Of a stretch of 64,000 nt of DNA, positions 7,268-64,000 are shown in pieces. The DNA lies in the NCBI GenBank assembly GCA_963818455.1, contig CAWFSE010000009.1:107325-171324 (forward strand), given 5' to 3'. The notes under the pieces are model-generated. The model saw nothing but the letters and a program-made list of their open reading frames with translations. It was not told where the DNA came from and did not search any database. Made by a program: the position numbers and the translations under genes. The stretch comes from an uncultured Actinomycetota bacterium (GTDB lineage: Bacteria > Actinomycetota > Actinomycetes > CAVWCF01). Position 1 is the first letter of the stretch. Each line of letters starts with the position of its first letter.

Positions 7268-7281
7268 GCGTGGACCGCGCG

Positions 7282-8666: not shown

Positions 8667-8675
8667 GGTCGGGGT

Positions 8676-10054: not shown

Positions 10055-10476
10055 GCCGGGTTGTTGGACTGGCCGCCGCCCCGGGGCGGTACGACCCGAC
10101 GCTCCACAGGTGGCCGCCCGGGTCGCGCAGGGTGAAGTCGCGAGCCGCCGTACTCCTGCTGGGTGAGCGGCTGCACGACCTCGGCCTTCATCTCGACGGC
10201 GCGCTCGAAGGCGGCGGCGACGGAGGGGTCGTCATCGGTCGCGAGGTACGTCCAGGACGGGCCGGTCTCGACGACGAGGCGGCCCGGTTCGCCTGCGGCG
10301 GGCTCGTCGCCCAGCATCAGCACGCCGTTGCCCCACTGCAGCTCGGCGTGCATGACCCCGCCCGCGGCGTTGCGGAAGGCCGTGCGCGGCTCGGCGCCGA
10401 GCACGTGCACCAGCCACTCGATCGCGGCGTCGCAGTCGGCGTAGCGAAGCGTCGGGATCACATTCGGTCGCGGCAT
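10051..10476 (-). CDS. VOC/glyoxalase-family (PhnB-like) protein, frame break near 10130
   Basis: [22 protein letters not shown]...[18 protein letters not shown] in the tail of ORF 10051..10914. Expected ...[20 protein letters not shown] appears only after removing one base. Confidence 0.65.
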
Positions 10477-10574
10477 CGGGAAGCTGTTGTCATCTGCGTC
10501 GTCGCCAAGGGCCATGGCGCAACTCTGTGCGGGGAGCGGGCTGCCGCGCAAGGCGGCAGACGGTCGGGACTGGC

Positions 10575-11827: not shown

Positions 11828-11843
11828 GGCCGCGCCGATCCTG

Positions 11844-44227: not shown

Positions 44228-44263
44228 GGGGCGCAGCCTAGGCCGCCCGCTTAGCATGGTGGG

Positions 44264-45287
44264 GTGAGCGACCTCCCGACCGACCCGACCGACGTGACCG
44301 CCCCCCGCTCGACGGCTGCCGAAGCGCCGGAGACCGTCAAGCGCGTGCTGCTGGCGGCTCCACGCGGCTACTGCGCAGGCGTGGACCGCGCGGTGGTGAC
44401 CGTCGAGAAGGCGTTGGAGCTCTATGGCGCCCCCGTCTACGTGCGCAAGCAGATCGTGCACAACAAGCATGTGGTCGAGACCCTTGAGGCGAGGGGTGCG
44501 GTCTTCGTCGAGGAGACCGAGGAGGTGCCGGAGGGCAGCATCGTGGTGTTCTCGGCCCACGGGGTGGCGCCCTCGGTGCACGAGGAGGCCGCGGCCCGCC
44601 GGCTGAAGACGATCGACGCCACCTGCCCGCTGGTGACCAAGGTCCACCAAGAGGCCAAGCGGTTCGCCGCCGAGGGCTACGACATCCTGCTCATCGGGCA
44701 CGAGGGGCACGAGGAGGTCGTCGGCACGACGGGGGAGGCCCCCGGCGCGATCCAGGTCGTCGACGGCGAGGAGGACGTCGCCCGCGTCGAGGTCCGCGAC
44801 CCGGCCAAGGTGGCCTGGCTGTCGCAGACCACGCTGTCGGTGGACGAGACCCTGCACGACCATCGGCCACATCAAGGAGCGCTTCCCGCTGCTCATCGAT
44901 CCGCCGAGCGATGACATCTGCTACGCGACCCAGAACCGCCAGGTCGCGGTCAAGGAGATCGCGCTGCAGTGCGACCTGGTCATCGTGGTGGGCTCGCGCA
45001 ACTCGTCGAACTCCGTGCGCCTGGTCGAGGTGGCCCTCGAGTCGGGGGCCCGGGCGGCCCACCTGGTCGACGCCGCCAGCGAGATCGACGAGTCCTGGCT
45101 GGAGGGCGTCCAGACCGTGGGGCTGACGAGCGGCGCATCCGTGCCCGAGGTGCTGGTCGACGGCGTGCTCGGCTGGCTCGCCGAGCGGGGCTACGACACG
45201 GTCTCCGAGGTGCAGTCCGCGGAGGAGAGCCTGCTGTTCGCGCTGCCGCCAGAGCTGCGTCGCGACCTCAAGGCCGCCCGCGTCTGA
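44264..45287 (+). CDS. ispH: 4-hydroxy-3-methylbut-2-enyl diphosphate reductase, one frame break near 44860
   Basis: ORF 44264..44914 ([33 protein letters not shown]); C-terminus in ORF 44985..45287 (VGSRNSSNS). Length is 3n+1. Confidence 0.9.
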
Positions 45288-45762: not shown

Positions 45763-47107
45763 CTACCCGCTGGCCGCGGGCGCCGGGTGGTCGTGCCCCC
45801 CGGCGGGGAGGGCTCGCACCGACCGGGCGTCGGCCGCGTGCGCGACCAGGTCGGGGTGCGACAGCACCCGGACGGCGTCGTGCAGGGCGGCGGGCTCGAT
45901 GAGATCCTCCTCGGCGACCTTGAGGTCCTTGAGCTTGCGGGCGCTGACGAGGACGCGCGTCTCCAACGAGCCGATCGCGGTGTTGTAGTCCCTCACGACC
46001 GCGTTGACCGAGCGGCCCAGCTTGTCCAGGTGCCCGCCCAGGGTGCCCAGCCGCTCGTAGAGCTCGCGGCCAAGCTCGAAGACCAGCCGGGCGTTGTCGG
46101 CGAGGGCGTCCTGGCGCCAGGCGAAGGCCACCGTTCGAAGGGTGGCGAGCAGCGTCGTGGGGGTGGCCACGATGACCTGCTTGCGCATCGCGTACTCAAG
46201 CAGCCCGGGCTCGTGCTCGAGGGCGTAGACGAGGAACGACTCGCCGGGCACGAACATCACGACGAACTCGGGGCTCTGCGAGAACTGCCGCCAGTACGCC
46301 TTGCCGGCGAGCTGGTCGACGTGGGTGCGCAAATGCCGTGCGTGCGCCTGCATGCGGGCGCGGGCGGTCTCGTCGTCGTCACGAGGCACTGGCCTCCAGG
46401 AAGGCCGACAGCGAGACCTTGGCGTCGACGACGATCTGCTTGCCGCCGGCGAGGCGCACGACGAGGTCGGGGCGCTGGACGCCGTCGTCGCCGGCCTGGG
46501 TGGCCTGGGTGTCGAAGTCGCAGTGCTCGACCATGCCGGCGAGCTCGACGATGCGGGCCAGCTGCAGCTCGCCCCAGGCTCCCCGGGCCTGGGGCGCGCG
46601 CAGCGCCTGGACCAGGCCGCGGGTCTCGGCCTGCAGGGCCTCGGCGGTGCGCCGGGAGAGCTGGACCTGCTCCAGCAGGGACGCGTGGGAGGTGGCGCGC
46701 TCGCGGTCGGTGCGCTCGATCTGCTGCTCGACCTTGCCCAGGGTCTCCTTGATCGGGGTGAGCAGGGTCTGCACCTCGACCGTGCGCTTGTCGAGCTCGG
46801 CGGTCTGGGCCTGGTGGGACTGGGCCAGCCGCTCCTGGGCCAGGTCGATGAACGCGGTGTTGTTGCGCTGCAGGGCGTCGGAGGCCAGCGCCTGGAACTG
46901 CTCGGCCAGGCGCTGCTGGTCGTCGCGCAGGGCGGCGTGCCGCTCGGCCGCGTGCGTGCGCTCGGACTCGAGCTCGGCGCGGGTGGCCGCGAGCTCGGCC
47001 TCGGCCGAGCCGGCCCGGTTGCGCGCGAGGGTCCAGCCGACGGCGAACCCGAGGGCCGCACCGATGGCGATGCCGAGGGCGAGGAGGAGCAGGGCGGAGA
47101 GGTCCAT
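45763..47107 (-). CDS. rmuC: DNA recombination protein RmuC, one frame break near 46380
   Basis: N-terminal TM plus coiled coil (ORF 46379..47269 from ATG at complement 47105-47107); nuclease-like C-domain [14 protein letters not shown]...[17 protein letters not shown] (ORF 45763..47130). Confidence 0.85.
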
Positions 47108-47177
47108 GCCGCCATGGTCTCGGGGGGCACCGACAGAATGCGGGCCCATCGCGCCGCCCCGCCTAGACTCGCCGCCC

Positions 47178-48263
47178 GTGAGCCTCCAGATCGGAATCGT
47201 CGGCCTCCCCAACGTCGGCAAGTCCACCCTGTTCAACGCGCTGACCAAGAACGACGTGCTGGCGGCCAACTACCCGTTCGCGACGATCGAGCCCAACGTC
47301 GGCGTGGTCGGCGGTCCCGGATCCGCGGCTGGCGGTCTCGGCGGAGATCTTCGGCTCGGCCCGCATCCTCCCGGCCACGGTCGAGTTCGTCGACATCGCC
47401 GGGCATCGTGCGCGGCGCGTCGGAGGGCCAGGGCCTCGGCAACAAGTTCCTGGCCCACATCCGCGAGGCCGACGCGATCTGCCAGGTGATCCGGGTGTTC
47501 GACCGACCCGGACGTGGTCCACGTCGACGGCGAGGTGTCGCCGGCGGCCGACATCGAGACCATCAACACCGAGCTGATCCTGGCCGACCTGCAGACCCTG
47601 GAGAAGGCCGTCCCGCGCCTGCAGAAGGAGGCGCAGATTCACAAGGACCGCGCCGAACGCGCTGGCCGCCGCCGCGCAGGCGCAGGAGGTCCTGAACGGC
47701 GGGACCACGGTCTTCGCCGCCGGGCTCGACCGCGAGGCCTGCTGCGCGAGCTGTCGCTGCTCACCGCCAAGCCGTTCCTGTACGTCTTCAACATGGACGA
47801 CGCCGAGCTCGGCGACGACGAGCTCAAGGACCGGATGCGGGCGCTCGTGGTCGCCCCGCCGAGGCGGTCTTCCTGGACGCCAAGATCGAGTCCGAGCTCG
47901 CCGACCTGGACGACGGACGAGGCGCCGAGCTGCTGCAGTCCGATCGGGCCAGGAGCAGCCAGGGCTCGAGCTGCTGGCGCGGGTCGGCTTCGACACCCTC
48001 GGCCTGCAGACGTACCTCACCGCCGGGCCCAAGGAGGCCCGCGCCTGGACGATCCAGAAGGGCGACACCGCGCCCGGAGGCCGCCGGGGTGATCCACACG
48101 GACTTCGAGCGCGGCTTCATCAAGGCCGAGGTGGTCGTCTTCGACGACCTGGTCGCGGCTGGCTCGATGCACGAGGCGAAGGCCGCGGGGCAAGGTGCGG
48201 ATCGAGGGCAAGGACTACGTGATGGCCGACGGCGACGTCGTGGAGTTCAGGTTCAACGTCTAG
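47178..48263 (+). CDS. ychF: redox-regulated ribosome-binding ATPase YchF; at least 6 frame breaks
   Basis: GTG 47178; G1 motif [12 protein letters not shown] (tail of ORF 46338..47489), [22 protein letters not shown]-domain end GFIKAEVV...[14 protein letters not shown]-stop spread over many short frames. Confidence 0.85.
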
Positions 48264-48281
48264 CGTCTGGGGGCTTGAGCC

Positions 48282-48841
48282 TTGCTGATCTACTCGATGG
48301 GCGTCTCAGCGGACGGCTTCATCGCCGACCGCGACGGCGGGTTCGACTGGTCCGAACCCGACGAGGAGCTATTTCGGTTCCATCTCCAGCAGGTCGTCTC
48401 GCTCGGTGGATTCCTGTTGGGCCGCAAGCTCTACGAGACCATGGTCGTGTGGGAGACGGATGCGTCGCTTGCGCGACACCCCGCTCGGCGCGGCGTTCGC
48501 CGATGCCTGGTGCGCGATCCCGAAGGTCGTGTTCAGCCGAACGCTCGACGGCGTTCAGGGTCATGCCCGCCTGGCTGAGGCGCCGCTGGCCGAAGAGATC
48601 GCCGGTGCGCTCGGCCTCGACCGACAAGGACATCGGGATCGGCGGCGCCGGTCTGGCCGCGACAGCGATCGAGCTCGGCCTCGTCGACGAGTTGAGCATG
48701 TTCCGTCACCCGATCGTGGTCGGCGGTGGCACGTCCTTCTTCCCGCCCGTCGCCGAAGGCCTCCGGCTGGAACTGGTCGAGACAGCGGAGTTCGGCTCGC
48801 GCGTGATCTACGAGCGCTACCGGCGTGCGCCGCTCTCGTGA
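48282..48841 (+). CDS. dihydrofolate-reductase-like (RibD C-terminal domain) protein, two frame breaks
   Basis: [22 protein letters not shown] (ORF 48282..48578), middle in ORF 48406..48849, end [32 protein letters not shown] in ORF 48089..48841. Confidence 0.7.
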
Positions 48842-48938
48842 TGCCCTGACGCCGCCGAACCCGGTGGAGTTCCGCGACCACGTGTAGTGGGCGGCGGATG
48901 GGCTGCAGCTGCGCGGCCGCTGTTCCCCACGTTCGGAC

Positions 48939-49061
48939 TCACCGCCGGATCGTCTTGCCGAGCGCGCGCTCGTCCGCGGTGCTACGCCAGGACTCGCGGC
49001 GAGCACCGGTCGACTCGATCCCGCGGCTCGCGTGGCCGGTGACCTTGTCTCCGCTGCCCAT
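48939..49061 (-). CDS. possible small CsbD-like stress protein (40 codons as assembled)
   Basis: MGSGDKVTGH... with about 36 of 40 GC-ending codons in a frame absent from the ORF track; only the MG-GDK start resembles CsbD. Confidence 0.3.
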   Translation of the reverse strand: MGSGDKVTGHASRGIESTGARRESWRSTADERALGKTIRR

Positions 49062-49089
49062 GAAGCGGGCCGACCGAGGCGTGCGACCT

Positions 49090-49420
49090 CACGGCGGCTG
49101 GCGGACGCGGTGAGCACCTGGGGCGCGGAGCGTGCCCAGCGGCTCGCCCAGACCCGGCCAGGGGTGCGCGGCGCGCTGCTCTGCGAGGCCGGCCTGCGAT
49201 CGCCGGTGAGTGGGCGTTCGGGCCTTGGCCCGACGGGGTGCCCGTGCAGATCCACGGCATGGACCGCGACCCGTTCTTCGCGCTCGAGGGCGACATCGAC
49301 GCCGCCCGCGACCTCGTCCGGGCGGTCGGCCCCGACGGGGACGAGGTGTTCGTCTACGCAGTGCCTGGAGGACCGGGACTGTTCGCTGACAGCTCGCTGG
49401 CGTCGTACGAGCGCCTCGAC
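49090..49420 (+). pseudogene. C-terminal fragment of a dienelactone-hydrolase-like alpha/beta hydrolase
   Basis: GEWAFGPWPDGVPVQIHGMDRDPFF...DIDAARDLV...DEVFVY...LFADSSLASY (ORF 49238..50068 and neighbours). No N-terminal half: that space is taken by the minus-strand small ORF. Confidence 0.4.
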
Positions 49421-49549
49421 GCCGGCCTTGAGCTCGCGGACACCGGGCATCAGATGCCCGTCGGACACGCAGGCGGCCACGATCACCTCACCCGCGAGGG
49501 CCGTGACCTTGCCCCACTCCTCGTCGCTGAACAGCTCACGCGTGGTCAT
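49409..49549 (-). CDS. 5' part of a small hypothetical gene immediately downstream of the GNAT gene; 3' end unresolved
   Basis: MTTRELFSDEEWGKVTALAGEVIVAACVSDGHLMPGVRELKAGVEAL (head of ORF 48533..49549). The rest of that ORF is an Arg-rich shadow of the hydrolase fragment. Confidence 0.3.
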
Positions 49550-49556
49550 CGAAGCC

Positions 49557-50033
49557 TCACCCTGCTCCTGGCGCCAGGCCGGTCAGCAGCATCAGCACGC
49601 CCTGCTCGTCGTCCTCTCCGCGGCGGAAGCCGCACGCAGCGTAGAACGCCTCGGCGTCGGGGTTGTCGGCCAGGACCCAGACGTCCGAAAGCCGAGCCCC
49701 CTCGGCCCACCCGCGCATCTCGGCGATCAGCGCCCGGCCGACCCCTTGTCTGCGGTACGCCTCGCGCACGCCGATCGCGTAGAGCAGCAGCTCACGGCCC
49801 ACCCCCGAGGGCATCGGCAGCAGGTGGCAGAGCAGCTCACCGACGACGTGCCCCTCGCGCTCGGCCACCCAATGCAGCACGGATGGGTTGGCGAGGTAGG
49901 CCTCGGCATCGGCGGGGGCAAGCGGCGGCTCGGGATCGCCGTGATGGGCAAGGTCGAAGTCGGCCGCCTCCCGAGCGATCAGCGCAAGGGTCTCTGGGTC
50001 GCCTGGCCCGAGCCGGCGGACGGCGATCTCCAT
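49557..50033 (-). CDS. GNAT-family N-acetyltransferase
   Basis: Last 158 codons of ORF 49557..50351 from MEIAVRRLG; acetyl-CoA motif A AIGVREAYRRQGVGRALI; ...AEAFYAACGF. Confidence 0.85.
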   Translation of the reverse strand: MEIAVRRLGPGDPETLALIAREAADFDLAHHGDPEPPLAPADAEAYLANPSVLHWVAEREGHVVGELLCHLLPMPSGVGRELLLYAIGVREAYRRQGVGRALIAEMRGWAEGARLSDVWVLADNPDAEAFYAACGFRRGEDDEQGVLMLLTGLAPGAG

Positions 50034-50074
50034 CCGCCGAGGGTAGTGAGTCTCGGTGTCCGCGCTGATGGCCT

Positions 50075-50106
50075 GTGGATGAGTCTTCCGCGGAAGAGTC
50101 ATCCAC
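50075..50106. promoter_or_regulatory. 32-bp near-perfect palindrome upstream of the GNAT gene
   Basis: GTGGATGAGTCTTCCGCGGAAGAGTCATCCAC: 15 of 16 positions pair. Lies 41 nt upstream of the GNAT ATG, in the divergent region toward the ACAD gene. Confidence 0.6.
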
Positions 50107-50533
50107 AACCGCGCGGGCACCTCGTCCAGTTCGCGGTCGTCCGCGTGCAGCAGATGCGGCGAGCAGGTGCCCTGCAGCCAGGCCGTCTTGGTGGGCTCCA
50201 GCCCAAGGGCGGCGCGGTGTCGCGTACGACTCGACCCGCAACCAGGTGTCGCGCTCGGGGGAGTGCCGCGCGACGTGGAAGTCCTACCGGCCTTCGGGCG
50301 CCAGCTCGCCGGCGAAGGCGGAGAGGAATCGATCGATCGGAGCCCGGCCATCGGTCAGCCTGGGCATGGCCGCGCACGAGGGCCGGACGGCCCCGGTCGA
50401 GCCGCTTGACCCCCCGACGGGGGCCGTTCGACTCTCCGCCGGGCTTGACGGCTTCGGCAGACTCGGGGGCATCCCGGTTGCCCGGACCTCGGTCCGGGGG
50501 CTTATCGCTACGCGCCCGAAAGGCCCGCGCCCT

Positions 50534-52222
50534 ATGTCAGTCGCTCCTGTAGTCGGTCTCGACCGCGAGACCCTCGACTTCACCCTTGAGGCCATTCGGG
50601 AGTTCGCGGCGCGGCACCTGCCCGACGAGCGCCTGCTCGAGCTGGATCACCTCGACGAGTGCCCGGTCGACACCGTCCGGCTCATGTGCGGCGAGGAGCT
50701 GGGGATCCAGCTGGTCTTCGTCCCCGAGGAGTACGGCGGCATGGGCGGCAGCGCCTTCGACGTCTACCGGGTCTGCGAGGTGATGGCCGGCATCGACCTG
50801 GGGGTGGCGACGAGCGTGCTCGCGACGTTCCTCGGCACCGACCCGATCACGGTCGGGGCCACCGAGGAGCAGAAGGCGCGCTGGCTCGGAGAGGTCGCCG
50901 AGGACGGCGCGCTCTTCGCGTACGGCGCGACCGAGCCGGAGGCCGGCAGCGACCTCGGCTCGCTGCGGACGAAGGCGACGCCGATCATGGACGGCGAGGT
51001 GGTGACCGGCTACCGGATCACCGGCCGCAAGCAGTGGATCAGCAACGGCGGGGTGGCCGACGGCTACACGATCCTGGCCAACGCCCCGGGCGGCCCGACC
51101 TGGTTCGTGGTCGAGCGGGGCGCGGAGGGCTTCACCCAGGCCAAGCCCGAGGACAAGCACGGGATCCGGCTGTCGAACACCGCGGCGCTCGTGCTCGAGG
51201 ACGTCGAGGTCGGCGCCGACGCCCTCGTGGGCGAGGTCGAGGGCCAGGGGCTGTGGCAGGCCCAGCAGGTCTTCGGCTACACCCGCCTCATGGTGGCGAC
51301 CTTCGGCCTCGGCGCCGGGTGGGCCGCGCTCGACCGCGCGATCACGTACTCCACGACCCGGATCCAGGCGGGCGGGCCGCTGTCGGAGAAGCAGGGCTAC
51401 ACCCACAAGCTGATCGTGCCCCACGCCGTGCGGCTGGAGGCGTCCCGCGCCTACATCGAGGAGACCGCCGAGCGCATCGACGCGGGGGAGGGCAGCCTCA
51501 ACACCGAGGGCGCGATCGCCAAGTACCTCGCGACCGAGAGCGGCAACGCCGCCGCCGACGCCAGCATCCAGGCGCTCGGCGGCTACGGCTACACCCGCGA
51601 GTACCTGGTCGAGAAGATCAAGCGCGACGTCCGCATCACGACGATCTACGAGGGCACCTCCGAGATCATGGAGATGACGATCGGCCGCGACCGCTGGCAG
51701 CAGCACCTCAAGACGCAAGGGGCGTACTACCACGACGCGGCGCGCGCCCTCGAGCGGCTGCACGGCTCCGCGCCGGCGGTCGGCGCCGACGTCGCCGCGC
51801 TCGGCCTGCACGCGCTGGGCGGGCTGCTTGAGCGGGCGCGGGTCGGCCGGCTGACCCGCCACCAGCACGTCCTGTTCCGCCTGGGCGAGCTGATCGCGTA
51901 CGCGGAGCCGGCGGCCTCCTTCGCCCGCCGCGCCGCGCGGGCCGCGACCGGGACGCTGTCGGACAAGGCCGAGCGCGGCTTCGACGCCGAGGGGCTCGCG
52001 ACGCTGTCGCGGATCTTCGCGCGCGAGGCCGCCGAGCGGGTCTCCACCGAGGGGATGCGCCTCGTGGTGGGCGCGGGCGGCGCCGACCCCGCGCACCTGC
52101 CCCAGCTGGCGCAGGCGCTTCGGGTGAGCGAGATCCAGGCCGCCCAGGTCGGCCTGATCCCCGACATGGATGCCGCGGTCGCCGCGGTCTACCGCCGAGC
52201 CGAGCACGGCCACCACGCGTGA
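50534..52222 (+). CDS. acyl-CoA dehydrogenase with ~165-aa C-terminal extension; first gene of the PKS/FAS-like locus
   Basis: In-frame ATG 50534 in ORF 50075..52222, 562 aa, no frame break; ACAD motifs [28 protein letters not shown], followed by a helical Ala/Arg-rich tail. Confidence 0.85.
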
Positions 52223-52280
52223 CCGACCCGACCCCTCCCGCCCCGCACCGAACCGCCCCCCACCCGCAGGAGAGCACGCC

Positions 52281-55215
52281 ATGACCGTCGGAGCTGTTGA
52301 GGACTACGCCCACCGGGCCGTCGCGATCGTCGGGGTGGGCGCGGTGCTGCCGGACGCCCTCGACGCGGGCGCGTTCTGGGCGAACATCACCGGCGGCCGC
52401 TACAGCATCACCGACGTGCCGGACGGGCGCTGGGACCCGGCGCTCTACTACGACGCCGACCCGAACGCGCCGGAGAAGACGTACTCGAAGATCGGCGGCT
52501 GGGTCCGCGAGTTCGACTGGAACCCGCTGGGCTGGAAGCTGCCGATCCCGCCGCTGGTCTCCGCGGCGATGGACGAGGGGCAGAAGTGGGCGGTCGCCTG
52601 CACGCGCGCCGCCCTCATCGACTCCGGCTGGCCCGAGCGGCCGCTCGACCACGAGCGCACCGCGGTCATCTTCGGCAACGCCATCGCCGGCGAGAAGCAC
52701 TACCTCACCGCGCTGCGGATCAGCTTCCCCGAGTTCGCGCAGAGCCTTGAGCAGTCGCCCAGCTTCGCCGCGCTGCCCGCAGACGTCCGGGCGGCGCTGA
52801 TCGCCGAGTCCCACGACCGGATGATGGCCGCGACGCCGCCGATCACCGAGGACACGATGCCCGGCGAGCTCGGCAACGTGCTCGCCGGTCGGATCGCGAA
52901 CCTCTTCGACTTCCGCGGCCCCAACTTCGTCACCGACGCCGCGTGCGCCTCGGCGATGGCCGCGATCAGCGCCGGCGTCGACGGGCTGCTCGACCACGAC
53001 TTCGACGCCGTGGTCACCGGCGGCATCGACCGCAACATGAGCGCCGCGACCTTCGTGAAGTTCTGCAAGATCGGCGCGCTGTCGGCGACCGGCACCCGGC
53101 CCTACGCCGACGGCGCCGACGGCTTCGTGATGGGCGAGGGCGCGGCGGTCTTCGTGCTCAAGCGGCTCGCCGACGCCGAGCGCGCCGGCGACCGGATCTA
53201 CGCGGTGCTGCGCGGCATCGGCGGCTCCAGCGACGGCAAGGGCAAGGGGATCACCGCGCCCAACCCGATCGGGCAGCGGCTCGCGGTCGAGCGCGCCTGG
53301 CGGCAGGCGGGACTCAGCCCGGCGACCGCGACGCTGGTCGAGGGGCACGGCACCTCGACGCGGGTCGGCGACGTGGTCGAGGTCGAGGGGCTCATGTCGG
53401 TCTTCGGGGCGGCCGGGGCGGCTCAGGGGTCGATCGCGCTCGGCTCGGTGAAGTCGAACATCGGGCATCTCAAGGCCGCCGCCGGCGCGGCCGGGCTGCT
53501 CAAGGCGGCCCTCGCGCTGCACCACAAGGTGCTGCCGCCGAGCCTGAACTTCGCCGCGCCCAACCCCAACATCGACTTCGCCGCAGGCCCGTTCCGGGTC
53601 AACACCGAGCTGCGCGCGTGGCCGACGCCCCCGAGCGGCGTGCGGCGCGCCGGCGTCAGCGCGTTCGGCTTCGGCGGCACCAACTTCCACGTCGTGCTCG
53701 AGGAGTACGTCCCCGGCCGCCTCCGCGCGGGCACGACGAGGACCTTCGCCGCCTCGGCGCCCGCGCCGGCCGCGGTCAGCGCCGCCGCGGACCCCGGGCC
53801 CGCCAAGGCCCCGCTCCGCGGCGCTGGTCGTCCTCGGCGCGGCCGACGAGGCCTCGCTCGCCGACCGACTCGGGCGCGTCGCCGACGCCGCTGGCCGGGC
53901 GACGCCCCAGCGCCGGCCGCGCCGGCCGCCGCCGACCTGGCCGCACCCGATCCGGCTCGCCATCGATTTCGCCGACGCCGCGGAGCTGGCCGACAAGGCG
54001 GGCAAGGCCAAGGCGGCGCTCGCCGCAGGCCAGCCGGCCATCTGGCGGGCGCTGCGCGCCCGCGGCATCTTCCTCGGCCGCGGCGCCGCCCCGAAGGTCG
54101 CGTTCCTCTACACCGGCCAGGGCTCGCAGTACGTCAACATGCTCAAGCAGCTGCGCGCCACCGAGCCGATCGTCGCCGCGACCTTCGCCGAGGCGGACCG
54201 GGTGATGACGCCGCTGCTCGGCCGGCCGCTGACCGACTACATCTTCGTCGACGCCGAGGACCCGGCCGCGGTCAAGCAGCTGGAGGAGGAGCTGCTGCAG
54301 ACCGAGATCACCCAGCCGGCGGTGCTCGCCACCGACATCGCGCTCTACCGGCTGCTGCGGCCTACGGCGTCGACCCGGACATGGTGATGGGCCACAGCCT
54401 CGGCGAGTACGCCGCGCTGGTCGCGGCGGGGTCGCTGTCCTTCGCCTCGGCGCTCGAGGCGGTCAGCGCGCGCGGGCACGAGATGGCGACGCTGTCCGTC
54501 GGCGACAACGGCGCCATGGCGGCGGTCTTCGCGCCGCTCGCCGAGATCGAGCGCATCGTCGACGCGGCCGAGGGCTACGTCGTGGTCGCCAACGTCAACA
54601 GCACCAGCCAGGCGGTGATCGGCGGCGCCACGGCGGCCGTCGAGGGCGCGATGGGCGCCTTCGCCGAGGCGGGCTTCACCGCGGTGCGCATCCCGGTGAG
54701 CCACGCGTTCCACACCTCGATCGTGGCCCCGGCGAGCGAGCCCTTGAAGGTGGCGCTGGCCCGCATGGAGCTGCGGGCCCCGGTGCGCCCGATCGTCGCC
54801 AACGTCGACGGCGCGTTCTACCCGACGGGGCCCGGGGCCGACGAGCAGATGCTCGACATCCTCGGCCGCCAGGTCGCCGCGCCGGTGCAGTTCGTCCACG
54901 GGCTGGAGACCCTGTACGACGCGGGCGCCCGCGTGTTCGTCGAGGTCGGCCCGAAGCGCGCGCTGCACGGCTTCGCCGAGGACGTCCTCGGCGCCGACCC
55001 ACGACGACGCCCAGGCGCTGTTCACCAACCACCCCAAGGCCGGCGACGTGCCGTCGTTCAACCAGGCGCTGTCCGGGCTGTACGCGGCCGGCCTCGGCAC
55101 CCCCGCACCCGCCGCCGCATCGCCGCGCCTGCCCCGCCCCCCGCCGCGGTCCCCCCGCCCCCCGCCGCGACCCCCCCGACCGCGTCGACCCCCGCCCGTT
55201 CTGGAGCCGCCATGA
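52281..55215 (+). CDS. type I FAS/PKS protein, KS-AT (PfaA-N-terminus-like); 3-4 frame breaks; may be fused to the next gene
   Basis: AGGAG then ATG 52281. KS and AT motifs are listed in the domain features. The TGA at 55213-55215 overlaps the next ATG (ATGA) in one frame; in another frame an Ala/Pro linker reads through. Confidence 0.85.
52320..53708 (+). other. ketosynthase domain 1 (C-H-H triad present)
   Basis: [12 protein letters not shown] (Cys), [37 protein letters not shown]. Confidence 0.85.
54090..54990 (+). other. acyltransferase (malonyl-type) domain
   Basis: [10 protein letters not shown], active-site [16 protein letters not shown] (HAFH, associated with malonyl specificity). 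Confidence 0.85.
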
Positions 55216-58200
55216 CCACCGACCGCTACGTCGAGCTCGGCCACCTGTTCGCCGACTTCCTCGAGCACGGTCGCGAGATCATGGAGGGCACCGCCCCCGC
55301 GGCGCGCGGCGGGTCGGGAACCGGGCCGATGGAGCCCGTCGTCATCACCGGCGCCGCGCTCGGGCTGCCCGGGACCGACCGGGTGTTCGACGACCACAAC
55401 GTGGCGCGGCTGCTCGGCGGCGAGCAGCTGATCGACCTCATCCCCACCCGGTTCCGGCACAAGATCCTGGACAAGCACATCACCCGGCTGGTCAAGGGCG
55501 ACGGGGGCGGGCGGTTCGAGTCCATCGACGACCCAGCCGACGTGCTCAAGCTGGCCGGCCGCGCCGGGCAGCTCGACCTCGTCGAGGAGTTCGGCGTCGA
55601 CCCCGAGCGCGACCGCGCGCTCGACACCGTCACCCGGCTCGCGATCGGCGCCGGCTTCGACGCGCTGCGCGACGCGGGGATCCCGCTCGTCCAGCACTAC
55701 CGGCTCACCTCGCTGGGCACCCAGCTGCCCTCGCGCTGGGGCCTGCCGGACTCGATGCGCGACGACACCGGGGTGATCTTCGCCTCCGCGTTCCCCGGGT
55801 TTGACGCCTTCGCCGACGAGCTCGAGCGCCACTACACCGACCAGGGCCGCCGCCATGAGCTTGAGGGGCTGCGGTCGCTGCGGGCCCGGGTGACGGACGC
55901 CGAGCCGGTCGCCGCCGAGCTCGACCACCGCACCCGCGAGCTCGAGGCGCTGCTCGCCGAGGAGGGCTACGAGTTCGACCGCCGCTTCCTGTTCCGCGTG
56001 CTGTCGATGGGGCACTCGCAGTTCGCCGAGATCATCGGCGCCCGCGGGCCGAACACCCAGGTGAACTCCGCCTGCGCGAGCACCACGCAGGCCATCGCCC
56101 TGGCCGAGGACTGGATCCGCGCCGGCCGCTGCCGCCGGGTCGTCATCGTCGCCGGTGACGACGTCACCGCCGACCACCTCGTCGACTGGGTCGGCGCCGG
56201 CTTCCTCGCGTCCGGCGCCGCGGCCACCGACGACGTCGTCGAGAACGCGGCGCTGCCGTTCGACAACCGACGGCACGGGATGATCATGGGCATGGGGGCC
56301 GCCGGCCTCGTGGTCGAGTCGGCGGAGGCGGCCCGCGAGCGCGGGATCCAGCCGATCTGCGAGGTGCTGTCGTCCGTCACGGCCAACAGCGCCTTCCACG
56401 GCACCCGGCTCGACGTCGAGCACATCGGCCAGGTGATGGAGAGCCTGGTCGCCCAGGCCGAGGCGCGCGGCGTACGCCGGCACGAGATCGCGCCGGAGAC
56501 GGTCTTCGTCTCGCACGAGACGTACACCCCGGCACGCGGCGGCAGCGCCGCGGCCGAGATCAACGCGCTGCGGCAGGTCTTCGGCGCCGACGCCGACCGG
56601 ATCGTCATCGCCAACACCAAGGGGTTCACCGGCCACCCGATGGGCGTGGGCATCGAGGACGTCGTCGCGGTCAAGGCGCTGGAGACCGGCCTCGTGCCGC
56701 CGATCCCCAACTTCCGCGAGATCGACCCCGAGCTCGGCCAGCTCAACCTGTCGACCGGCGGCGCGTACCCGGTGCGCTATGCGCTGCGGCTGGCCGCCGG
56801 ATTCGGCTCGCAGATCAGCATGACGCTGCTGCGCTGGACCCCGGTGCCCGACGGCGCCCACCGCGAGCCGACCGAGTTGGGCTACGGCTACCGCGTCGTC
56901 GACCCGGCGGCATGGGGGGCGTGGCTGCGCGGCCTGAGCGGGCAGGACGACCCGCAGCTCGAGGTCGTCCAGCGGCGCCTGCGCGTGGTGGACCGCGGTT
57001 GGTCCGCGCCGAGGACGGCTCCCGCGGCGCCGGCCGTGCCGGTGGCGGTCGCCAGCAGCGCCTCCGGTCGCGCCCGGTCGCGCCGGTCGCGCCCGGTCGT
57101 GCCGGTCGCTCGCGGCCGCGGCGCCGCCGGCGCTGCCGGCGGCGCCGGCGGGGGTGGACCCGGTGGTGGCCGAGGTGCTGTCGGTGGTGTCGGAGAAGAC
57201 CGGCTACCCGCAGGAGATGCTGGATCTGGACCTGGATCTGGAGGCGGACCTGGGCGTCGACACGGTGAAGCAGGCGGAGGTGTTCGCCGCGATCCGGGAG
57301 ACGTTCGCGATCGAGCGGGACGACTCGCTGCAGCTGCGGGACTACCCGACGCTGACGCATGTGGTCGGGTTCGTCCGGGACCGGGGGCACGAACCTGCCG
57401 GCGGCCGCGCCCGCCGCTGCCGCCGCCGCGGCCGGCCGCTCCGGCGGCTGCCGGCGGCGCCGGCGGGGGTGGACCCGGTGGTGGCCGAGGTGCTGTCGGT
57501 GGTGTCGGAGAAGACCGGCTACCCGCAGGAGATGCTGGATCTGGACCTGGATCTGGAGGCGGACCTGGGCGTCGACACGGTGAAGCAGGCGGAGGTGTTC
57601 GCCGCGATCCGGGAGACGTTCGCGATCGAGCGGGACGACTCGCTGCAGCTGCGGGACTACCCGACGCTGACGCATGTGGTCGGGTTCGTCCGGGACCGGG
57701 GGACGAACCTGCCGGCGGCCGCGCCGGCCGGCGCGCCGGTCGTGCCGGCCGCGCCGGCCGCTGCTGGCGGCGCCGGCGGGGGTGGACCCGGTGGTGGCCG
57801 AGGTGCTGTCGGTGGTGTCGGAGAAGACCGGCTACCCGCAGGAGATGCTGGATCTGGACCTGGATCTGGAGGCGGACCTGGGCGTCGACACGGTGAAGCA
57901 GGCGGAGGTGTTCGCCGCGATCCGGGAGACGTTCGCGATCGAGCGGGACGACTCGCTGCAGCTGCGGGACTACCCGACGCTGACGCATGTGGTCGGGTTC
58001 GTCCGGGACCGGGGGACGAACCTGCCGGCGGCCGCGCCCGCCGGCGTGCCGTCGCCGCCGGCCGCTGCCGCGGCTGCTGGCGGCGCCGGCGGGGGTGGAC
58101 CCGGTGGTGGCCGAGGTGCTGTCGGTGGTGTCGGAGAAGACCGGCTACCCGCAGGAGATGCTGGATCTGGACCTGGATCTGGAGGCGGACCTGGGCGTCG

Positions 58201-60919
58201 ACACGGTGAAGCAGGCGGAGGTGTTCGCCGCGATCCGGGAGACGTTCGCGATCGAGCGGGACGACTCGCTGCAGCTGCGGGACTACCCGACGCTGACGCA
58301 TGTGGTCGGGTTCGTCCGGGACCGGGCGACCACCCTCCCGGCTGGTGGCGTCGGACGCCGCGGCGTCGTCGCCCGCGGCCGCCCTGCCGGAGGTCCCGGT
58401 GCTGTCCGGCAGCCTGGAGGCCGCCGAGCAGATCCCGCGGCGGGTGCCCGTTCCGGTGCTCCGCCCGGCCCTCGACCGGTGCCGCCCCACCGGGGTGCGG
58501 CTGGACGAGGCCGCCCGCGTCGTGGTCATGGCCGACCAGGGCGGCGTGGGCGACGCGCTGGTCAGCCAGCTCGGCAAGCTCGGCGTCGCCGTGCTCGCAG
58601 TCACCGACGCGCCCGACGCCGAGACGCTGGGCCAGCGGTTGGCCGACTTCAGCGCGGACGGTCCGGTCACGGGCGTGTACTGGCTGCCGGCCCTCGACGC
58701 CGAGGGCCCGGTCGGCGGAGCTGGACCTCGACGCCTGGCACGAGGCCCTGCGGATCCGGGTCGGGCTGCTGTACACGACGATGCGTGCCGTCGCCGACGG
58801 CTCGCCGTTCCTGGTCGCGGCGACTCGGCTGGGCGGGCAGCACGGCTACGACCCGGCCGGGGCGGTCAACCCGCTCGGCGGCGCGGTCACCGGGTTCGCC
58901 AAGGCGTACGCGCCGGGAGGCCGCCGACGCGCTCGTCAAGGCGGTCGACCTGGCGCCGAGCCGCAAGACCGCGGCGTTGGCCGAGCTGCTGATCGGCGAG
59001 ACCCTGCGTGATCCCGGCTGCGTCGAGGTCGGCTACGCCGACGAGCGAGCGCTGGACGATCGGGCTGGAGGAGCGGCCGGCCGACGACGGCCGGCCGGGC
59101 TCACCCTCGACGGGTCGACGGTCTACGTGGTCACCGGCGCGGCCGGCAGCATCGTCTCGGCGATCGTGGCCGACCTCGCCAAGGCCGGCGGGGGCGGCGT
59201 CTTCCACCTGCTGGACCTCACGCCGGAGCCGGACCCGTCCGACCCCGACCTGGTGCGGTACGCGACCGACCGCGAGGGCCTCAAGCAGGACCTGATCGCC
59301 CGCCACAAGGCGGCGGGGGAGAAGGTCACCCCGGTGGCCGTGGAGCGCGAGCTCGCCGCCCTGGAGCGGCGCAGCGCGGCGCTGGCCGCCATCGAGGCCG
59401 TCGCCGCGGCGGGCGGCCAGGCGATCTACCACAGCGTCGACCTGGGCGATGTCGCCGCCGTGGGCGCCGTCATGGACGAGGCGCTGCAGCACTCCGGCCG
59501 GGTCGATGTGCTGGTGCACGCCGCCGGCATCGAGATCAGCCGACGGCTGGCCAACAAGGAGCCGGACGAGTTCAACCGGGTGTTCGCCGTGAAGAGCGAC
59601 GGCTGGTTCGCGCTGATGTCCGCCCTGCGCGGGCGCCCGCTCGGCGCGGTGGTGGCCTTCAGCTCGGTGGCCGGACGGTTCGGCAACCTGGGCCAGACCG
59701 ACTACGCCGCAGGCAACGACCTGCTGTGCAAGCTCGCCGTCGAACCTGCGCACGTCGCAGCCGGACACCCGCGGGATCGCCATCGACTGGACCGCCTGGG
59801 GCGGTATCGGCATGGCCACCCGCGGCTCGATCCCGGTGATGATGGAGGCGGCCGGCATCGACATGCTGCCGCCCGAGGCCGGGATCGCCACCGTGCGGCG
59901 CGAGCTGATCTCCGGCGGCACGAGCGACGAGATCGTCGTCGCCCAGCGGCTGGGGATCATGACCGCCGAGTACGCCGAGGCCGGCGGGCTCGACGTCGAC
60001 GCGATCGACGTGTCCGCCGCAGGCCCCATGATCGGCCAGGTGGTCGAGATGGGCGTGCACAGCGGGCTGGTCGTGGAGACCACGTTGGATCCGACGGCTC
60101 AGCCGTTCCTGGACCACCACCGGATCTCGGGGACCCCTGTCCTGCCAGGCGTCATGGGGATGGAGGCCTTCGCCGAGTTGGCCCGGCTCGCCTTCCCGGA
60201 CCGCCACGTCGTGGCGATCGAGGACGTCGACTTCCTGCGGCCGCTGAAGTTCTACCGCGATGAGCCGCGCACGCTGCGGATCAGCGCCACCTTCGTACGG
60301 GATGGCGACGACGTCGTCGCGCGGTGCCGGCTCGAGGCCAGCCGCACGCTGCCCGGACGCGACGAGCCCGAGGTGACGACGCACTTCACCGGTCGGGTCC
60401 GGTTGGCAGGCGCACGCCGCCTGCCGAGGCGACCGGCCAGGCGCCGGGCGACCCGTCCGGGCCCAGCGTGGGCCAGGGACCCGTGTACGAGGTCCTCTTC
60501 CATGGCCCGGCCTACCAGGTGGTCGACGACGTGTGGCGTGACGGCTCGGCGATCCTCGGCCGCTACGCAGAAGGGCTGGTCCCCGGCCACCAGCCCGGAC
60601 TCGCAGCCGACGGTCACCGATCCGCGGCTCGTCGAGCTGTGCTTCCAGACGGCGGCCGTGGCCGCCCTGGCCGAGCACGGGCTGCTGGCGCTGCCCGCGC
60701 ACGTCGACCGCGTGGTCGTGCTCGCGCATCCGGCCGAGCCGGCTGGCCGCCTCGTGGCGGCGACGGCCGAGGGCGCCGGCGGAGGGGTCGACGCCGAGGT
60801 GCGTCGACGGCGAGGGGCGGGTGTTCGTGCGGTTGGAGGGCTACCGCACGATCGAGCTGCCGCAGGCGGTCGATGAGGCGCTGCTGGCGCCGCTGCGCGC
60901 CGTGGCCTCGGCGGGTTGA
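55212..60919 (+). CDS. type I FAS/PKS protein, KS - 4x ACP-like - KR - DH; at least 6 frame breaks
   Basis: ATG 55212 ([10 protein letters not shown]). Pieces lie in ORFs 52170..57896, 57154..58209, 57674..59011, 57987..60263, 58300..58992, 59812..60876 and 60324..61490. Ends ...[12 protein letters not shown]-stop at 60917-60919. Confidence 0.85.
55335..56840 (+). other. ketosynthase domain 2 (atypical; Cys present, so not a CLF)
   Basis: [13 protein letters not shown], long insertion before the active site, [11 protein letters not shown] (Cys), VSHETYTP in place of [18 protein letters not shown]. Confidence 0.75.
57141..58330 (+). repeat. four tandem ACP-like carrier domains; ~245-bp cores nucleotide-identical, period 315/313/313 bp
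   Basis: Core GGCGCCGGCGGGGGTGGACCC...TTCGTCCGGGACCGGG starts at about 57141, 57456, 57769 and 58082. Each encodes [77 protein letters not shown]. Ala/Pro linkers differ by indels. Confidence 0.9.
59120..59830 (+). other. ketoreductase (SDR) catalytic subdomain; structural subdomain about 58380-59100
   Basis: [13 protein letters not shown] Rossmann motif, [20 protein letters not shown] (Ser/Tyr/Asn). Confidence 0.8.
60030..60900 (+). other. PKS-type (double hot-dog) dehydratase domain
   Basis: [21 protein letters not shown] (HxxxGxxxxP); second half [16 protein letters not shown]. Confidence 0.75.
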
Positions 60920-60924
60920 GCGCC

Positions 60925-63900
60925 ATGTCGAGTGCCATGGCCCAGACTGCGGATCGACCGCCCCTGCCGTTCCGGCGGCTGGCCCTGCTCGGCCGCGGCC
61001 CGGCCGCGGTCCGGCTGCTCGACGCCATCGCCGAGCTCGGGCCTCAGCGGCCGGCGACCCTGGCCCTGCACGTCGACGCCGATCGGCAGTCCCGGTACGT
61101 GCGGGACGCCGACGAGGCCTACGGGATCGGTCCGAGCGTGGGCGATCTGGCCCTGGTCGAGGCGGCCCTGCGCGAGTCGGGAGCCGACTCCGTGTGGCTC
61201 GGGCGGGGCCTCGGCCCCGCCCTGCGCGGCATCTGCGAGGTGAGCCAGCGGCTCGGCCTCGTCGTGGTCGGGCCGTCGCTGGAGGTGCTGGACCGCCTCG
61301 GCGACCCGATCGGGGTGAAGCTGCTGGCCGAGGAGCTGGGGATCACCTCCGTACCGTGGTCCGAGGGCCAGGTCGAGGACGTCGAGAGCGCGTTGGGCTG
61401 GGCGGCCCGGCTGGGCTACCCGCTCTTCGTCAAGGCCGCCGCAGCCGGCCGGGACGGGCTTGGCGTCCGCCGGGTCTCCTCGGCGGCTGACCTGCCGGGG
61501 GCCTTCGAGGCGGTCCGCTCCGAGGCCGGCCTGCTGTTCGGCGACGCCCGGGTGTTCCTTGAGCAGAAGGTCCCCGAGGCGCGGCACCTCGGGGTCCAGG
61601 TGATCTCCGACGGCCAGGGCACGGTGTGGGCCGCGGGTCTGTGCGAGTGCACCCTGCAGCGCCGCAACCGGACCATCGTGGAGGAGTCGGCTTCCCCCGG
61701 CCTGCCCGGCCCCGCGGGTCGCCGAGCTCTGCGACGCCGCGTCCCGCCTCGCGGCGGCCACCGGCTTCACCGGGGTCGGGACCGTGGAGTTCCTGGTCGG
61801 CCCGGACGACGCGCCAGCCCTGCTGCTCGGCGTGGACACGCAACTGGGCGCCGAGCACGGCGTGACCGAGGTCGTCACCGGCCTCGACCTGGTCAAGTGC
61901 GGGCTGGAGGTCGCGGCCGGCCGGCGCCTCCCGGGCGATCACCCCGAGCCGTCGGGGCACGCGGTGTCCGTGCGGCTGCGCGCGGAGGACCCCGAGCGCG
62001 GGTTCGTCCCCACCCCGGGCCGGATCCGCCAGCTGAGGCTCCCGTCCGGACCAGGGCTGCGGGTCGACGCGGGCGTCGCCGAGGGCGACGTCGTGCCCAC
62101 CGGTCTGGACCCGATCCTCGCCACCCTCGTCGCCTGGGGGCAGGACCGCGCGGAGGCGATCGCCAGGCTGGTACGCGGGCTTCGCCAGACCACGGTCGTC
62201 ATCGACGGCGGCGGCACGAACAAGGCGTTCCTGCTCGCGGTGCTCAACCATCCGGACTTCGCGCTCGGCCGGCTGGACACCGGCTGGCTGGACCGCGGGA
62301 TCGCCGACCGCACGCTCTTCCCCATGGAGCACGCCGAGGTCGCCCTGCTGCAGGCCGCGATCGACGCCTACGCGACCGACCACGAGCTGGCGCGCAAGGC
62401 CTTCTTCGCGACGGCCGCCCGCGGCCGGCCCGAGGCCCGCCGCGACCAGGGGCACCGGATCAGGTTCCGCTACCGGGGCCAAGAGGTGCCGCTGCGCGTG
62501 CTGCGGCTCGGTCCGCACGACTACCGGATCGACACCGGTGCGCGCCGGCTCGATCTGACGGTCACCCCGCGCGGACCCCTGGAGAGCCTGCTCACGGTCG
62601 GCGGCCGCCAGGTGCGCACGCTGTCGGTGGTGGACGGGCCGGTGCACTCGGTCGAGGTCGAGGGGGTCACCCACACCTTCACCCGTGACGACGGCGGCAC
62701 CGTGCGCGCCCCCGCCCCGGGCGTCGTGTTGGCGCTGCCGGTCCGCCCCGGCGACCGCGTCGCGGTGGGCGACACCATCGCGGTGCTCGAGGCGATGAAG
62801 ATGGAGACCGCGGTCGCCGCGCCGTTCGCCGGCCGGGTCCGCTCGGTGGCGGCGCTGGTCAACTCCCAGGTCGACTCCGGGCAGGCGCTGCTCGAGCTCG
62901 AGCTCGGCGAGGACCAGACCGCCCCCGACCCCGGCGACGCGCCCACGGCGCAGCAGCTCGACCTCGCCCTGCCTGAGCTGGCCGAGGGCGACCCGGAGCC
63001 GACGAGCCCCGGCCTGGTGCTCGAGACCCTGCATGCGTACCTGCTCGGCTACGACACCGACCCCAAGGACATCCAGCGCCTCGTCACCCGCGCGGGCGGC
63101 CCGCTGGCCGACCTGCCGGTCGATGACCCGCAGGTCATGGACCGGGAGGGCGAGATCCTTCGGCTCTTCGCCGACCTCTGCGCCCTCTCGCGCCGCCAGC
63201 ACGAGGGCGACGACGACGACGAGCAGGCCCTGGCCCGGAGCCCGCAGGAGTACTTCGCGTCGTACCTGCGCGCGCCCGGTCGCTCGCGCGACACGCTGCC
63301 CGCCCCCTTCCTGGACCGGCTGCGGCGGGTGCTCGCCCGGTACGGCGTCCCGGGCCTGGAGCCGTCACCGGCCCTCGACGAGGCTCTGCTGCGCATCTTC
63401 CGGGCCCAGCAGCGGCTCGGTGAGGCGGTGCCCGTGATCGCGTCCCTGCTGGAGCGGGGGATCGCCAACCGCGACCGGATGATGCGTCGGGTGGGCGACC
63501 TGGACGCCGTCCGCAGGCTGCTCGACCGGCTCGTGGCCGCCACCGACGGCCGCTACCCGACGATCGCCGACCTCGCCCAAGAGGCGCAGTTCCGGTGGTT
63601 CGCCGAGCCGGAGGTCGAGCGGGTCCAGGCCCTGGGGTACGCCACGGCCGAGACCTCCTACGCGGCGCTGCGTCGCGACCCGGACGGACCGGAGCGGGCG
63701 GACCTCATCGCCAGCCTGGTCTCCTGCCCGCAGCCCCTGCGCCCGCTGCTGCAGCGGTGGTACCGAGGCTGCCGGACCGGAGCTCCAGGGCGCGCTGCTG
63801 GAGACGGCCGTCCGCCGCTACTACCGGATCCGGGCGATCGAGAACGTCGCGACCGCAGACCGTGAACGGCGTGCCGATCTGCACGGCCGACTACGCGCAC

Positions 63901-64000
63901 GAGGGCCACCAGGTGCACCTGGTGATGGCGTACGTCCCGCTGGAGGGGCTGGCCGCGCTCGCCAACGGGCTCCGCGGGCACCTCGCCGACGTCCCCGCCG
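60925..64000 (+). CDS. single-chain acetyl/acyl-CoA-carboxylase-like protein (BC-like, biotinyl domain, ACC-central-like region; CT expected beyond the window); partial, at least 3 frame breaks
   Basis: ATG 60925, 5 nt after the DH stop. ATP-grasp BC-like region in ORFs 60916..62688 and 61784..63865; biotinyl motif AVLEAMKMETAV at about 62780-62815. The long helical region continues to the window edge. Confidence 0.8.

Follow-up and report, generated by a model that had tools for sequence, protein, structure and literature searches.

A poorly assembled PfaA-like megasynthase operon resembling the catalogued Type R secondary-lipid synthases

Introduction

Among the "secondary lipid" synthases catalogued by Shulse and Allen in 2011 (PMC3098273), Type R consists of a single pfaA homologue with the domain order ketosynthase (KS), malonyl acyltransferase (MAT), chain-length factor (CLF), three to six acyl carrier proteins (ACP) and ketoreductase (KR), followed by a phosphopantetheinyl transferase (PPTase) gene, and its product is unknown. 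Its hosts were Acidobacteria, Chloroflexi and Elusimicrobia (Koribacter versatilis Ellin345, Solibacter usitatus Ellin6076, Roseiflexus spp. and Elusimicrobium minutum), with an acetyl-CoA carboxylase (ACC) gene standing between synthase and PPTase in K. versatilis, and the same catalogue gives the Frankia-type synthases (Type M) as enoyl reductase (ER)-KS-MAT-ACP2-KR, KS-acyltransferase (AT)-PPTase and ACP (PMC3098273). Here we describe a locus that matches the Type R kind in a 64,000-nucleotide stretch of contig CAWFSE010000009.1 (assembly GCA_963818455.1, Actinomycetota), hereafter the window, where an acyl-CoA dehydrogenase (ACAD), a PfaA-like megasynthase and a single-chain biotin carboxylase are encoded on the + strand from position 50534 to the right edge.

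An original prediction, made from the letters of the window, had implied that this layout was without precedent. It is not: the locus is an ordinary, poorly assembled copy of an uncharacterised family that was catalogued in 2011 (PMC3098273) and has relatives in at least 511 species genomes. Relative to the published catalogue, three family traits were not found reported, namely a second ketosynthase (KS2) with a complete Cys-His-His set, a near-universal ACAD resembling the very-long-chain acyl-CoA dehydrogenases (VLCAD), and threonine in all 199 carrier domains. Full-text literature searches for a characterisation of this cluster type, with a known product, turned up only the 2011 catalogue. 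The cluster type was listed 15 years ago and is one of the commoner megasynthase operons in uncultured soil bacteria. Knowing which lipid it makes would close a gap in what is understood of membrane and storage lipids in Acidobacteriota, Solirubrobacterales, Acidimicrobiia and Myxococcota.

Results and discussion

Architecture and gene model of the locus

Pfam domains follow one another, all on the + strand, in the order ACAD N/M/C, KS N and C, AT, second KS, PP-binding, KR, PKS_DH_N/PS-DH, Biotin_carb_N, CPSase_L_D2, Biotin_carb_C and Biotin_lipoyl, so that every domain that had been predicted is present and in the predicted order. The ACAD (50534..52222; Pfam Acyl-CoA_dh_N/M/1) is an intact open reading frame (ORF) of 562 aa, its codons read directly from the ATG at 50534 to the stop TGA at 52220-52222, and a 58-nt gap holding the sequence GGAGAG separates it from the synthase ATG at 52281. 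The synthase itself (52281..60919) comes to ~2,930 aa after frame correction by frameshift-aware alignment and Pfam, and has the order KS1-AT-KS2-ACP x4-KR-dehydratase (DH). KS1 lies at 52314..53774 (Pfam ketoacyl-synt, Ketoacyl-synt_C and KAsynt_C_assoc), the AT at 54103..54956 (Acyl_transf_1), where it is frame-split near 54357, and KS2, which is FabF-like and has a long N-terminal insertion, at 55212..56900 (Pfam, NCBIfam). Four tandem carrier domains (57125..58342) are followed by the KR (59121..59735; Pfam KR and adh_short) and a DH of the polyketide synthase (PKS) type (60025..60916; PKS_DH_N and PS-DH), which forms the C-terminus of the synthase without a thioesterase (TE) after it. The DH frame stops at 60917-60919, and 5 nt further on the carboxylase begins with an ATG at 60925. 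Direct reading thus bore out the predicted spacing of 58 nt, ATGA at 55212 and 5 nt.

The prediction had counted four genes, two of them for the PKS. The frames of the locus are broken ~16-18 times in this part, and the KS-AT and KS-ACPn-KR-DH portions are most probably one polypeptide: in 11 clean relatives one ORF of 2,600-3,035 aa encodes the homologous synthase, arranged as KS-AT-KS-ACP(1-6)-KR-DH, and Pfam gives this arrangement in relatives L012 and L082 as well. Since both portions form one ORF there, the ATGA at 55212, between AT and KS2, is best read as part of a Pro/Ala-rich read-through linker and not as a gene boundary. Of the two possibilities that had been offered for this site, the linker therefore stands and the gene overlap does not, and we rejected a model of two PKS genes joined by an ATGA overlap.

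After frame correction, all of the motifs quoted in the prediction are present and conserved in 11 intact relatives, including GQGSQ/GHSLGE/HAFH of the AT, NSACAS/HETYT/GHPMG of KS2, and TGAAGS/YAAGN. The malonyl-type HAFH of the AT is found in 11/12 sequences, and the nearest named AT family in an intact relative is FabD. KS2 carries N[SAT]ACAST, HETYT and GH[PA]MG in 12/12 sequences; because the catalytic Cys and both His are kept in all twelve, it is a Cys-bearing ketosynthase, as had been claimed, and not a Cys-less CLF, and in the PDB its nearest matches are enzymes of the FabF type. The synthase is not named by any NCBIfam model. For KS1 and KR the best NCBIfam match is the PfaA model TIGR02813, the KS1 match being below cutoff, and Pks13 is among the matches of KS1-AT.

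The locus had been described as a PfaA-like type I fatty acid synthase/polyketide synthase that departs from the canonical pfa layout, and this description holds. The TIGR02813 cutoff of 1010 bits is missed both by a full-length relative (L012, 804 bits) and by the window fragments (407 and 154 bits), and PfaB, PfaC, PfaD, FabA-type DH and NAD(P)H-type ER are absent from the annotated gene tables of three relatives, the other loci having been probed only by tblastn with cluster components. On these two grounds we rejected a canonical pfa cluster with its partners elsewhere. The gene that follows the carboxylase in relatives is moreover a PPTase, with neither an ER nor a FabA-type DH gene in the three tables, which is not the arrangement of an ordinary pfa cluster. 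The predicted absences were likewise upheld within the scope searched: no Pfam family match to ER, FabA-type DH or TE was obtained at the locus or in the upstream stretch of 40.8-50.4 kb, the remaining window being unscanned for these, and no PPTase homologue was detected within the window by tblastn (E ≤ 1e-3).

Threonine at the attachment site of the carrier domains

The four predicted carrier domains were recovered by Tandem Repeats Finder (TRF; period 313, 3.9 copies, 97% matches), by Pfam PP-binding matches and by alignment of the units, whose cores of ~245 nt are 100% identical. The units are spaced 315/313/313 nt apart, and the frame therefore shifts by one at each of the last two steps, from the second carrier to the third and from there to the fourth. 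The length differences fall in GC-rich Ala/Pro linkers, and consensus collapse during assembly may be the cause of such perfectly identical repeats.

The motif DLG(I/V)DTVKQAE occurs in 199/199 carrier domains across 68 loci, including the four of the window, in which the Thr codon is ACG. These domains match the PF00550 fold and profile, yet the residue aligned with the attachment site is Thr and not the conserved Ser of DS(L/I) at the start of helix II; to our knowledge, all known carriers have the cofactor-bearing Ser at this position. HMMER searches against the PDB aligned the carrier DT with the DS of PigH and of the Streptomyces coelicolor ACP, BLASTP gave no alignment of the carrier domain with the Escherichia coli ACP, and no conserved Ser exists elsewhere in the domain. 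A carrier-domain search of 1.84 billion representative proteins (clusters at 50% identity) returned 861 matches at E ≤ 1e-30. Among the best 149 of these, 114 have Thr only, and of the 39 long ones among the 114, the KS2 signature is also present in 34. In canonical PfaA-like proteins the carrier motif is DLGIDSIKRVEIL, and one 3,234-aa protein (P0466) shares the KS-AT-KS architecture and the HETYT of KS2 but has Ser carriers (DLGIDSVKVAE), which makes it a natural counterpart for comparisons with the Thr-carrier clade. Evolutionarily, given the HMMER alignment, the lack of any other conserved Ser, and Ser in both the PfaA-like proteins and P0466, the Thr is a derived substitution shared across the clade at the true site of attachment, and the proteins concerned are clearly under purifying selection.

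Distribution and gene neighbourhood

KS2 relatives were found at no fewer than 511 loci in GTDB contigs taken as one genome per species, with identities of 64-83% and a best match, among the GTDB representatives returned, of 83%; ACAD identity across phyla is 65-78%, and conservation of both is thus very strong. The hosts are Actinomycetota, Acidobacteriota, Myxococcota, Gemmatimonadota, Calditrichaeota and further candidate phyla, and synteny extends across at least five phyla. Within the Actinomycetota they comprise Solirubrobacterales, Acidimicrobiia, Kineosporia, Amycolatopsis, Actinoplanes nipponensis and Kibdelosporangium, and homologues from Acidobacteriota (Bryobacteraceae, Solibacteraceae and Terriglobales) have a KS2 that is 67-73% identical. 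The listing of homologous proteins comprised only proteins of up to 979 aa, so that the KS2 matches there are fragments, enriched for broken assemblies. In Nostocoides australiense (HG764815.1; L002:10001-11804), KS2 stands alone as a 601-aa fragment with the annotation "partial", without KS1-AT, ACAD or carboxylase and with a DDE transposase and unrelated genes nearby, and it looks like a cluster remnant.

Neighbours were counted at 84 loci, each gene only where enough flanking DNA was present. KS1-AT lies upstream of KS2 at 68/70 loci, an ACAD near KS2 and upstream of the synthase at 63/66, and a carboxylase near KS2 at 45/53, which agrees with the predicted order of ACAD first and carboxylase last. 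A PPTase was found near KS2 at 31/48 loci, a lower bound, the electron-transfer flavoprotein (ETF) subunits EtfA/EtfB at ~28/59, and an Fe-S oxidoreductase with Fer4 and CCG domains at 26/59, the last two often upstream of the operon. In a subgroup of Acidobacteriota/Bryobacterales (L029, L032, L061, L065 and L070), the genes for the Fe-S protein, EtfB, EtfA, ACAD, PKS and PPTase are co-directional and closely spaced, and there is no carboxylase. Because this subgroup keeps ACAD, PKS and PPTase without it, the carboxylase is an optional module of the operon, and the ETF system, judged by gene order, is tightly integrated in the subgroup.

An acyl-CoA dehydrogenase of the VLCAD type

The ACAD has a helical C-terminal extension of ~170 aa and the catalytic-base motif IYEGTSEI, which contains the Glu motif YEGTSEI of medium-chain acyl-CoA dehydrogenases (MCAD). 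Its AlphaFold2 (AF2) model has a mean pLDDT of 67, with values of 82-96 over the C-terminal 160 residues, and full-length Foldseek matches at TM-scores of 0.60-0.65 included Bacillus anthracis 3owa, 7s7g, human VLCAD 2uxw, Thermus thermophilus 2z1q, 8phe and ACAD9. A core followed by a C-terminal helical domain of ~180 aa distinguishes the VLCAD type and is found here; the fold places the ACAD in this long-chain class and suggests long-chain substrates. At the sequence level, the named NCBIfam family for the ACAD and EtfA (best match) and for EtfB (second best) is acryloyl-CoA reductase AcrC/AcrA/AcrB, all below cutoffs, and the cluster EtfA finds its best PDB match in the Clostridioides difficile Bcd-EtfAB complex. 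The Fe-S/CCG protein of relatives resembles quinone-linked oxidoreductases. No ETF homologue was found in the entire window (tblastn, E ≤ 1e-3).

A truncated carboxylase and the expected PPTase

The carboxylase (60925..64000; Pfam and alignment to relatives) is cut by the window edge. It comprises a biotin carboxylase (BC) part at ~60970-62293, a biotin carboxyl carrier (BCCP) part at 62699-62899 with the motif EAMKME, and the start of the central region, all on the + strand. It ends at a point equivalent to residue 1005-1063 of relatives that are 1,810-1,910 aa long, so that ~45% of it is missing and the cluster, as had been claimed, continues past the right edge. Intact carboxylases of relatives have BC, BCCP, ACC_central (PF08326) and Carboxyl_trans on one chain, the complete order being seen in L003 and L012. 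An assignment to LCC, a ~120-kDa single chain of about 1,100 aa without an ACC central domain, was rejected on the length of the relatives and their ACC_central. The Shewanella multidomain ACC AccS, whose domain order is another (PMC11602165), was rejected on size, domain order and ACC_central.

In relatives such as L003, L016, L021 and L022 the gene after the carboxylase encodes a PPTase, and by synteny one is expected ~2.5 kb beyond the right window edge. The relatives' PPTases are divergent Sfp-type proteins with GCDLE and WSAKES motifs, whose nearest named family is HetI; a single PPTase sequence had no match to solved structures, and only a profile built from 13 members of the family did match.

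Frameshifts and assembly quality

The window has a G+C content of ~74%, and in a plot of G+C at third codon positions (GC3) the coding phase switches repeatedly within genes that should be continuous, with GC3 at 0.95-1.0 in every frame segment of the locus. Frameshift-aware protein-to-DNA alignments with three relatives (L012, L023 and L021) agree on ~16-18 frame changes in the synthase, mostly of +1 base, and alignment to relatives places three more in the carboxylase, near 61705, 63760 and 63850. Pfam domains are split accordingly: AT profile positions 2-78 and 79-268 fall in separate frames, and CPSase_L_D2 is broken near 61.7 kb. No long homopolymers were seen in the local context of the synthase frameshifts, and homopolymer-associated errors were rejected as their cause, the indels looking like scattered single-base insertions.

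The same defect is found in backbone genes of the window, among them MutL-like (6904-8663), amidase (8667-10051), MFS transporter (10054-12028), ispH/lytB (44255-45284), rmuC (45766-47269) and ychF (47500-48840). A contig that is 94% identical to the window (L085), reached through the window's cystathionine gamma-synthase, has intact MutL, amidase and MFS genes, and the window differs from it by ~50 gap openings over 17 kb, mostly 1-nt insertions in the window. We conclude that the frameshifts arose in sequencing or assembly and do not mark a decaying locus, because backbone genes share the defect and the first three of those listed are intact in L085, GC3 is high and the catalytic motifs are preserved. 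A decaying cluster, with frameshifts that are true mutations of this strain, would fit the ~20 frame changes in 13.5 kb, a density somewhat above that of some backbone genes, and yet it is very improbable and was rejected: ispH and ychF, which are expected to be indispensable, are broken in the same way as rmuC, the mutL-like, amidase and MFS genes and many others of the window, the four carrier cores are identical, and the corrected synthase remains 66-68% identical to L012, L023 and L021 along its length (2,600-2,770 residues). Frame splits throughout the window mean that any ORF-based reading of it requires frame correction.

Proposed function and alternative explanations

Functionally, with roughly even confidence, we posit a single operon for an iterative PfaA-like Type R "secondary lipid" synthase that has its own malonyl-CoA supply and uses the ACAD with its ETF partners as an enoyl reductase in trans. 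The carboxylase would supply malonyl-CoA to the pathway and the AT would load malonyl units onto the carriers, while the two KS domains would divide the elongation cycles between them, probably at different chain lengths. KR and DH would yield a trans-2-enoyl thioester, which the flavoprotein ACAD would reduce in trans, replacing the missing ER and served by EtfAB and the Fe-S/CCG oxidoreductase that are co-located in many relatives. Since every carrier has Thr at its attachment site, the cluster PPTase would be needed to load the carriers, and it may insulate the pathway from housekeeping PPTases. Tandem carriers and a dedicated carboxylase point to high flux, and synthesis would run in bulk towards a long acyl chain, mostly saturated or with sparse double bonds, and not towards a conjugated polyene. 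The original prediction had drawn a polyenoic or hydroxylated product from the missing ER, which overlooks the conserved ACAD, with EtfAB and the Fe-S protein, that could supply enoyl reduction.

A stronger form of this proposal, which we advance only tentatively and think somewhat unlikely as a whole, is that the family uses Thr as its phosphopantetheine site through a cognate, divergent Sfp-type PPTase, and a VLCAD-like flavoprotein in trans with EtfAB/Fe-S in place of an NAD(P)H-dependent ER, which together with a eukaryote-style ACC would make a self-contained, orthogonal fatty-acid factory for bulk lipid. If true, invariant Thr attachment would extend a textbook post-translational modification to a new form and could offer an orthogonal carrier/PPTase pair for engineering, ACAD/ETF as enoyl reductase would close the fatty acid synthase cycle in a new manner, and the combination of the two would imply a bulk lipid in the abundant Actinomycetota, Acidobacteriota and Myxococcota of soils.

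Several points weigh against these proposals. The role of the ACAD as enoyl reductase is their weakest link, being drawn from gene context and from sub-threshold similarity to reductase complexes; MCAD-type dehydrogenases match the ACAD as well as the reductases do, and an MCAD is also what its sequence matches best in the PDB. ETF genes are adjacent at only about half of the loci and not in this window, and ACAD/ETF systems in aerobes are normally oxidative. The carboxylase is missing from one Acidobacteriota subgroup, and we know of no precedent for phosphopantetheinylation of Thr. Finally, the match to the Type R kind is one of architecture and taxon overlap.

The synthase might instead truly lack enoyl reduction and make a polyenoic or hydroxylated chain as in the enediyne synthases (PKSE), with the ACAD working oxidatively and menaquinone receiving its electrons by way of ETF and the Fe-S protein; the ACAD might then introduce a double bond into a fatty-acyl starter, or a further one into the chain carried by the ACP. 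We consider this possible, though doubtful. It would account for the absence of an NAD(P)H-type ER from the locus, from the upstream 40.8-50.4 kb and from the three gene tables, for a DH that is solely of the PKS type, for the MCAD-type Glu motif and MCAD match of the ACAD, and for the likeness of the Fe-S/CCG protein to quinone-linked oxidoreductases. In mycobacteria, the ACAD-EtfAB-EtfD arrangement serves oxidation. Yet the dedicated carboxylase, the up to six tandem carriers and the very high conservation across phyla speak for a bulk lipid over a reactive polyene, no PKSE-type thioesterase lies nearby, and the nearest named families of ACAD, EtfB and EtfA are subunits of enoyl-CoA reductase complexes. 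An alpha,beta-desaturase would moreover be redundant, because the DH of the synthase already makes 2-enoyl intermediates.

Two catalytically complete KS domains in one protein, a carboxylase coupled to it by a 5-nt gap, Pks13 among the matches of KS1-AT and a VLCAD-like ACAD that implies long-chain acyl thioesters could also be read as a long-chain acyl-CoA carboxylase working with a Pks13-like head-to-head Claisen condensation, towards a branched, mycolic-acid-like or olefin-precursor lipid. This is improbable: the AT has the malonyl-type HAFH and FabD as its nearest named family, the carboxylase has ACC_central and the eukaryote-like order typical of acetyl-CoA carboxylases, neither a FAAL/FadD32-like loader nor a TE is present, and the Acidobacteriota subgroup keeps ACAD, PKS and PPTase without any carboxylase.

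Genomic surroundings

Between ychF and the ACAD (47696-50354) lie a RibD_C fragment and a minus-strand GNAT acetyltransferase (49560-50354), and nothing related to lipids. The locus had been called accessory; its patchy distribution across phyla makes this plausible. Its base composition does not differ from that of the remaining window. Further upstream, a gene for a methyl-accepting chemotaxis protein (3993-6080) suggests a motile actinomycete of high G+C as the source. The cystathionine gamma-synthase beside it has its closest named relatives in Yinghuangia and Carbonactinospora, at only 82-83% identity, and the source organism is probably an uncultured lineage.

Comparison with known systems

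The locus shares with Type R a single pfaA homologue with the order KS-MAT-(CLF/KS)-ACP(3-6)-KR and a carboxylase placed after the synthase like the Koribacter ACC, and its family shares the dispersal over unrelated phyla; in relatives a PPTase follows the carboxylase, and at the locus one is expected beyond the right edge of the window. It differs in that the second KS is termed a CLF in the catalogue, whereas KS2 here keeps Cys-His-His; the catalogue also lists no DH, ACAD or ETF partner and nothing on Thr carriers, and Actinomycetota are not among its hosts (PMC3098273). Type M was rejected, its Frankia-type layout differing from that of the locus.

With the canonical Pfa system the locus and its relatives have in common the KS-MAT-tandem ACP-KR-DH backbone, PfaA as the best NCBIfam match of KS1 and KR, a dedicated PPTase, and a closely related carrier motif (DLGIDSIKRVEIL in PfaA-like proteins versus DLGIDTVKQAE here). 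In contrast to that system, the family is without PfaB, PfaC (KS-CLF-2xFabA-DH) and the ER PfaD, and the locus has an extra complete KS between AT and ACPs, Thr carriers, and an added ACAD and carboxylase. The enediyne PKSE (KS-AT-ACP-KR-DH-PPTase), whose product is a conjugated polyene, carries a single KS, a single ACP and a PPTase fused to the chain, and works with a thioesterase partner. It resembles the locus in being a type I synthase that iterates, lacks an ER and uses a PKS-type DH, and in its associated PPTase activity; no PKSE family was among the NCBIfam matches.

Eukaryotic single-chain ACCs (yeast 5csk and human ACC1) have BC-BCCP-central-CT on one chain (CT, carboxyltransferase), as do the intact carboxylases of relatives, in which Pfam ACC_central is present, but the latter type is shorter (1,810-1,910 aa versus 2,200-2,400 aa), the similarity is distant (E ~1e-34, patchy), and its gene belongs to a biosynthetic operon. 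In its full-length fold, C-terminal helical domain included, the ACAD agrees with VLCAD, ACAD9 and Bacillus FadE, and the cluster ETFs are nearest to the ETFs of enoyl-CoA-reducing complexes such as Bcd-EtfAB and acryloyl-CoA reductase. What sets this ACAD family apart from these enzymes is that it scores far below the curated cutoffs, and that its gene stands directly upstream of a megasynthase.

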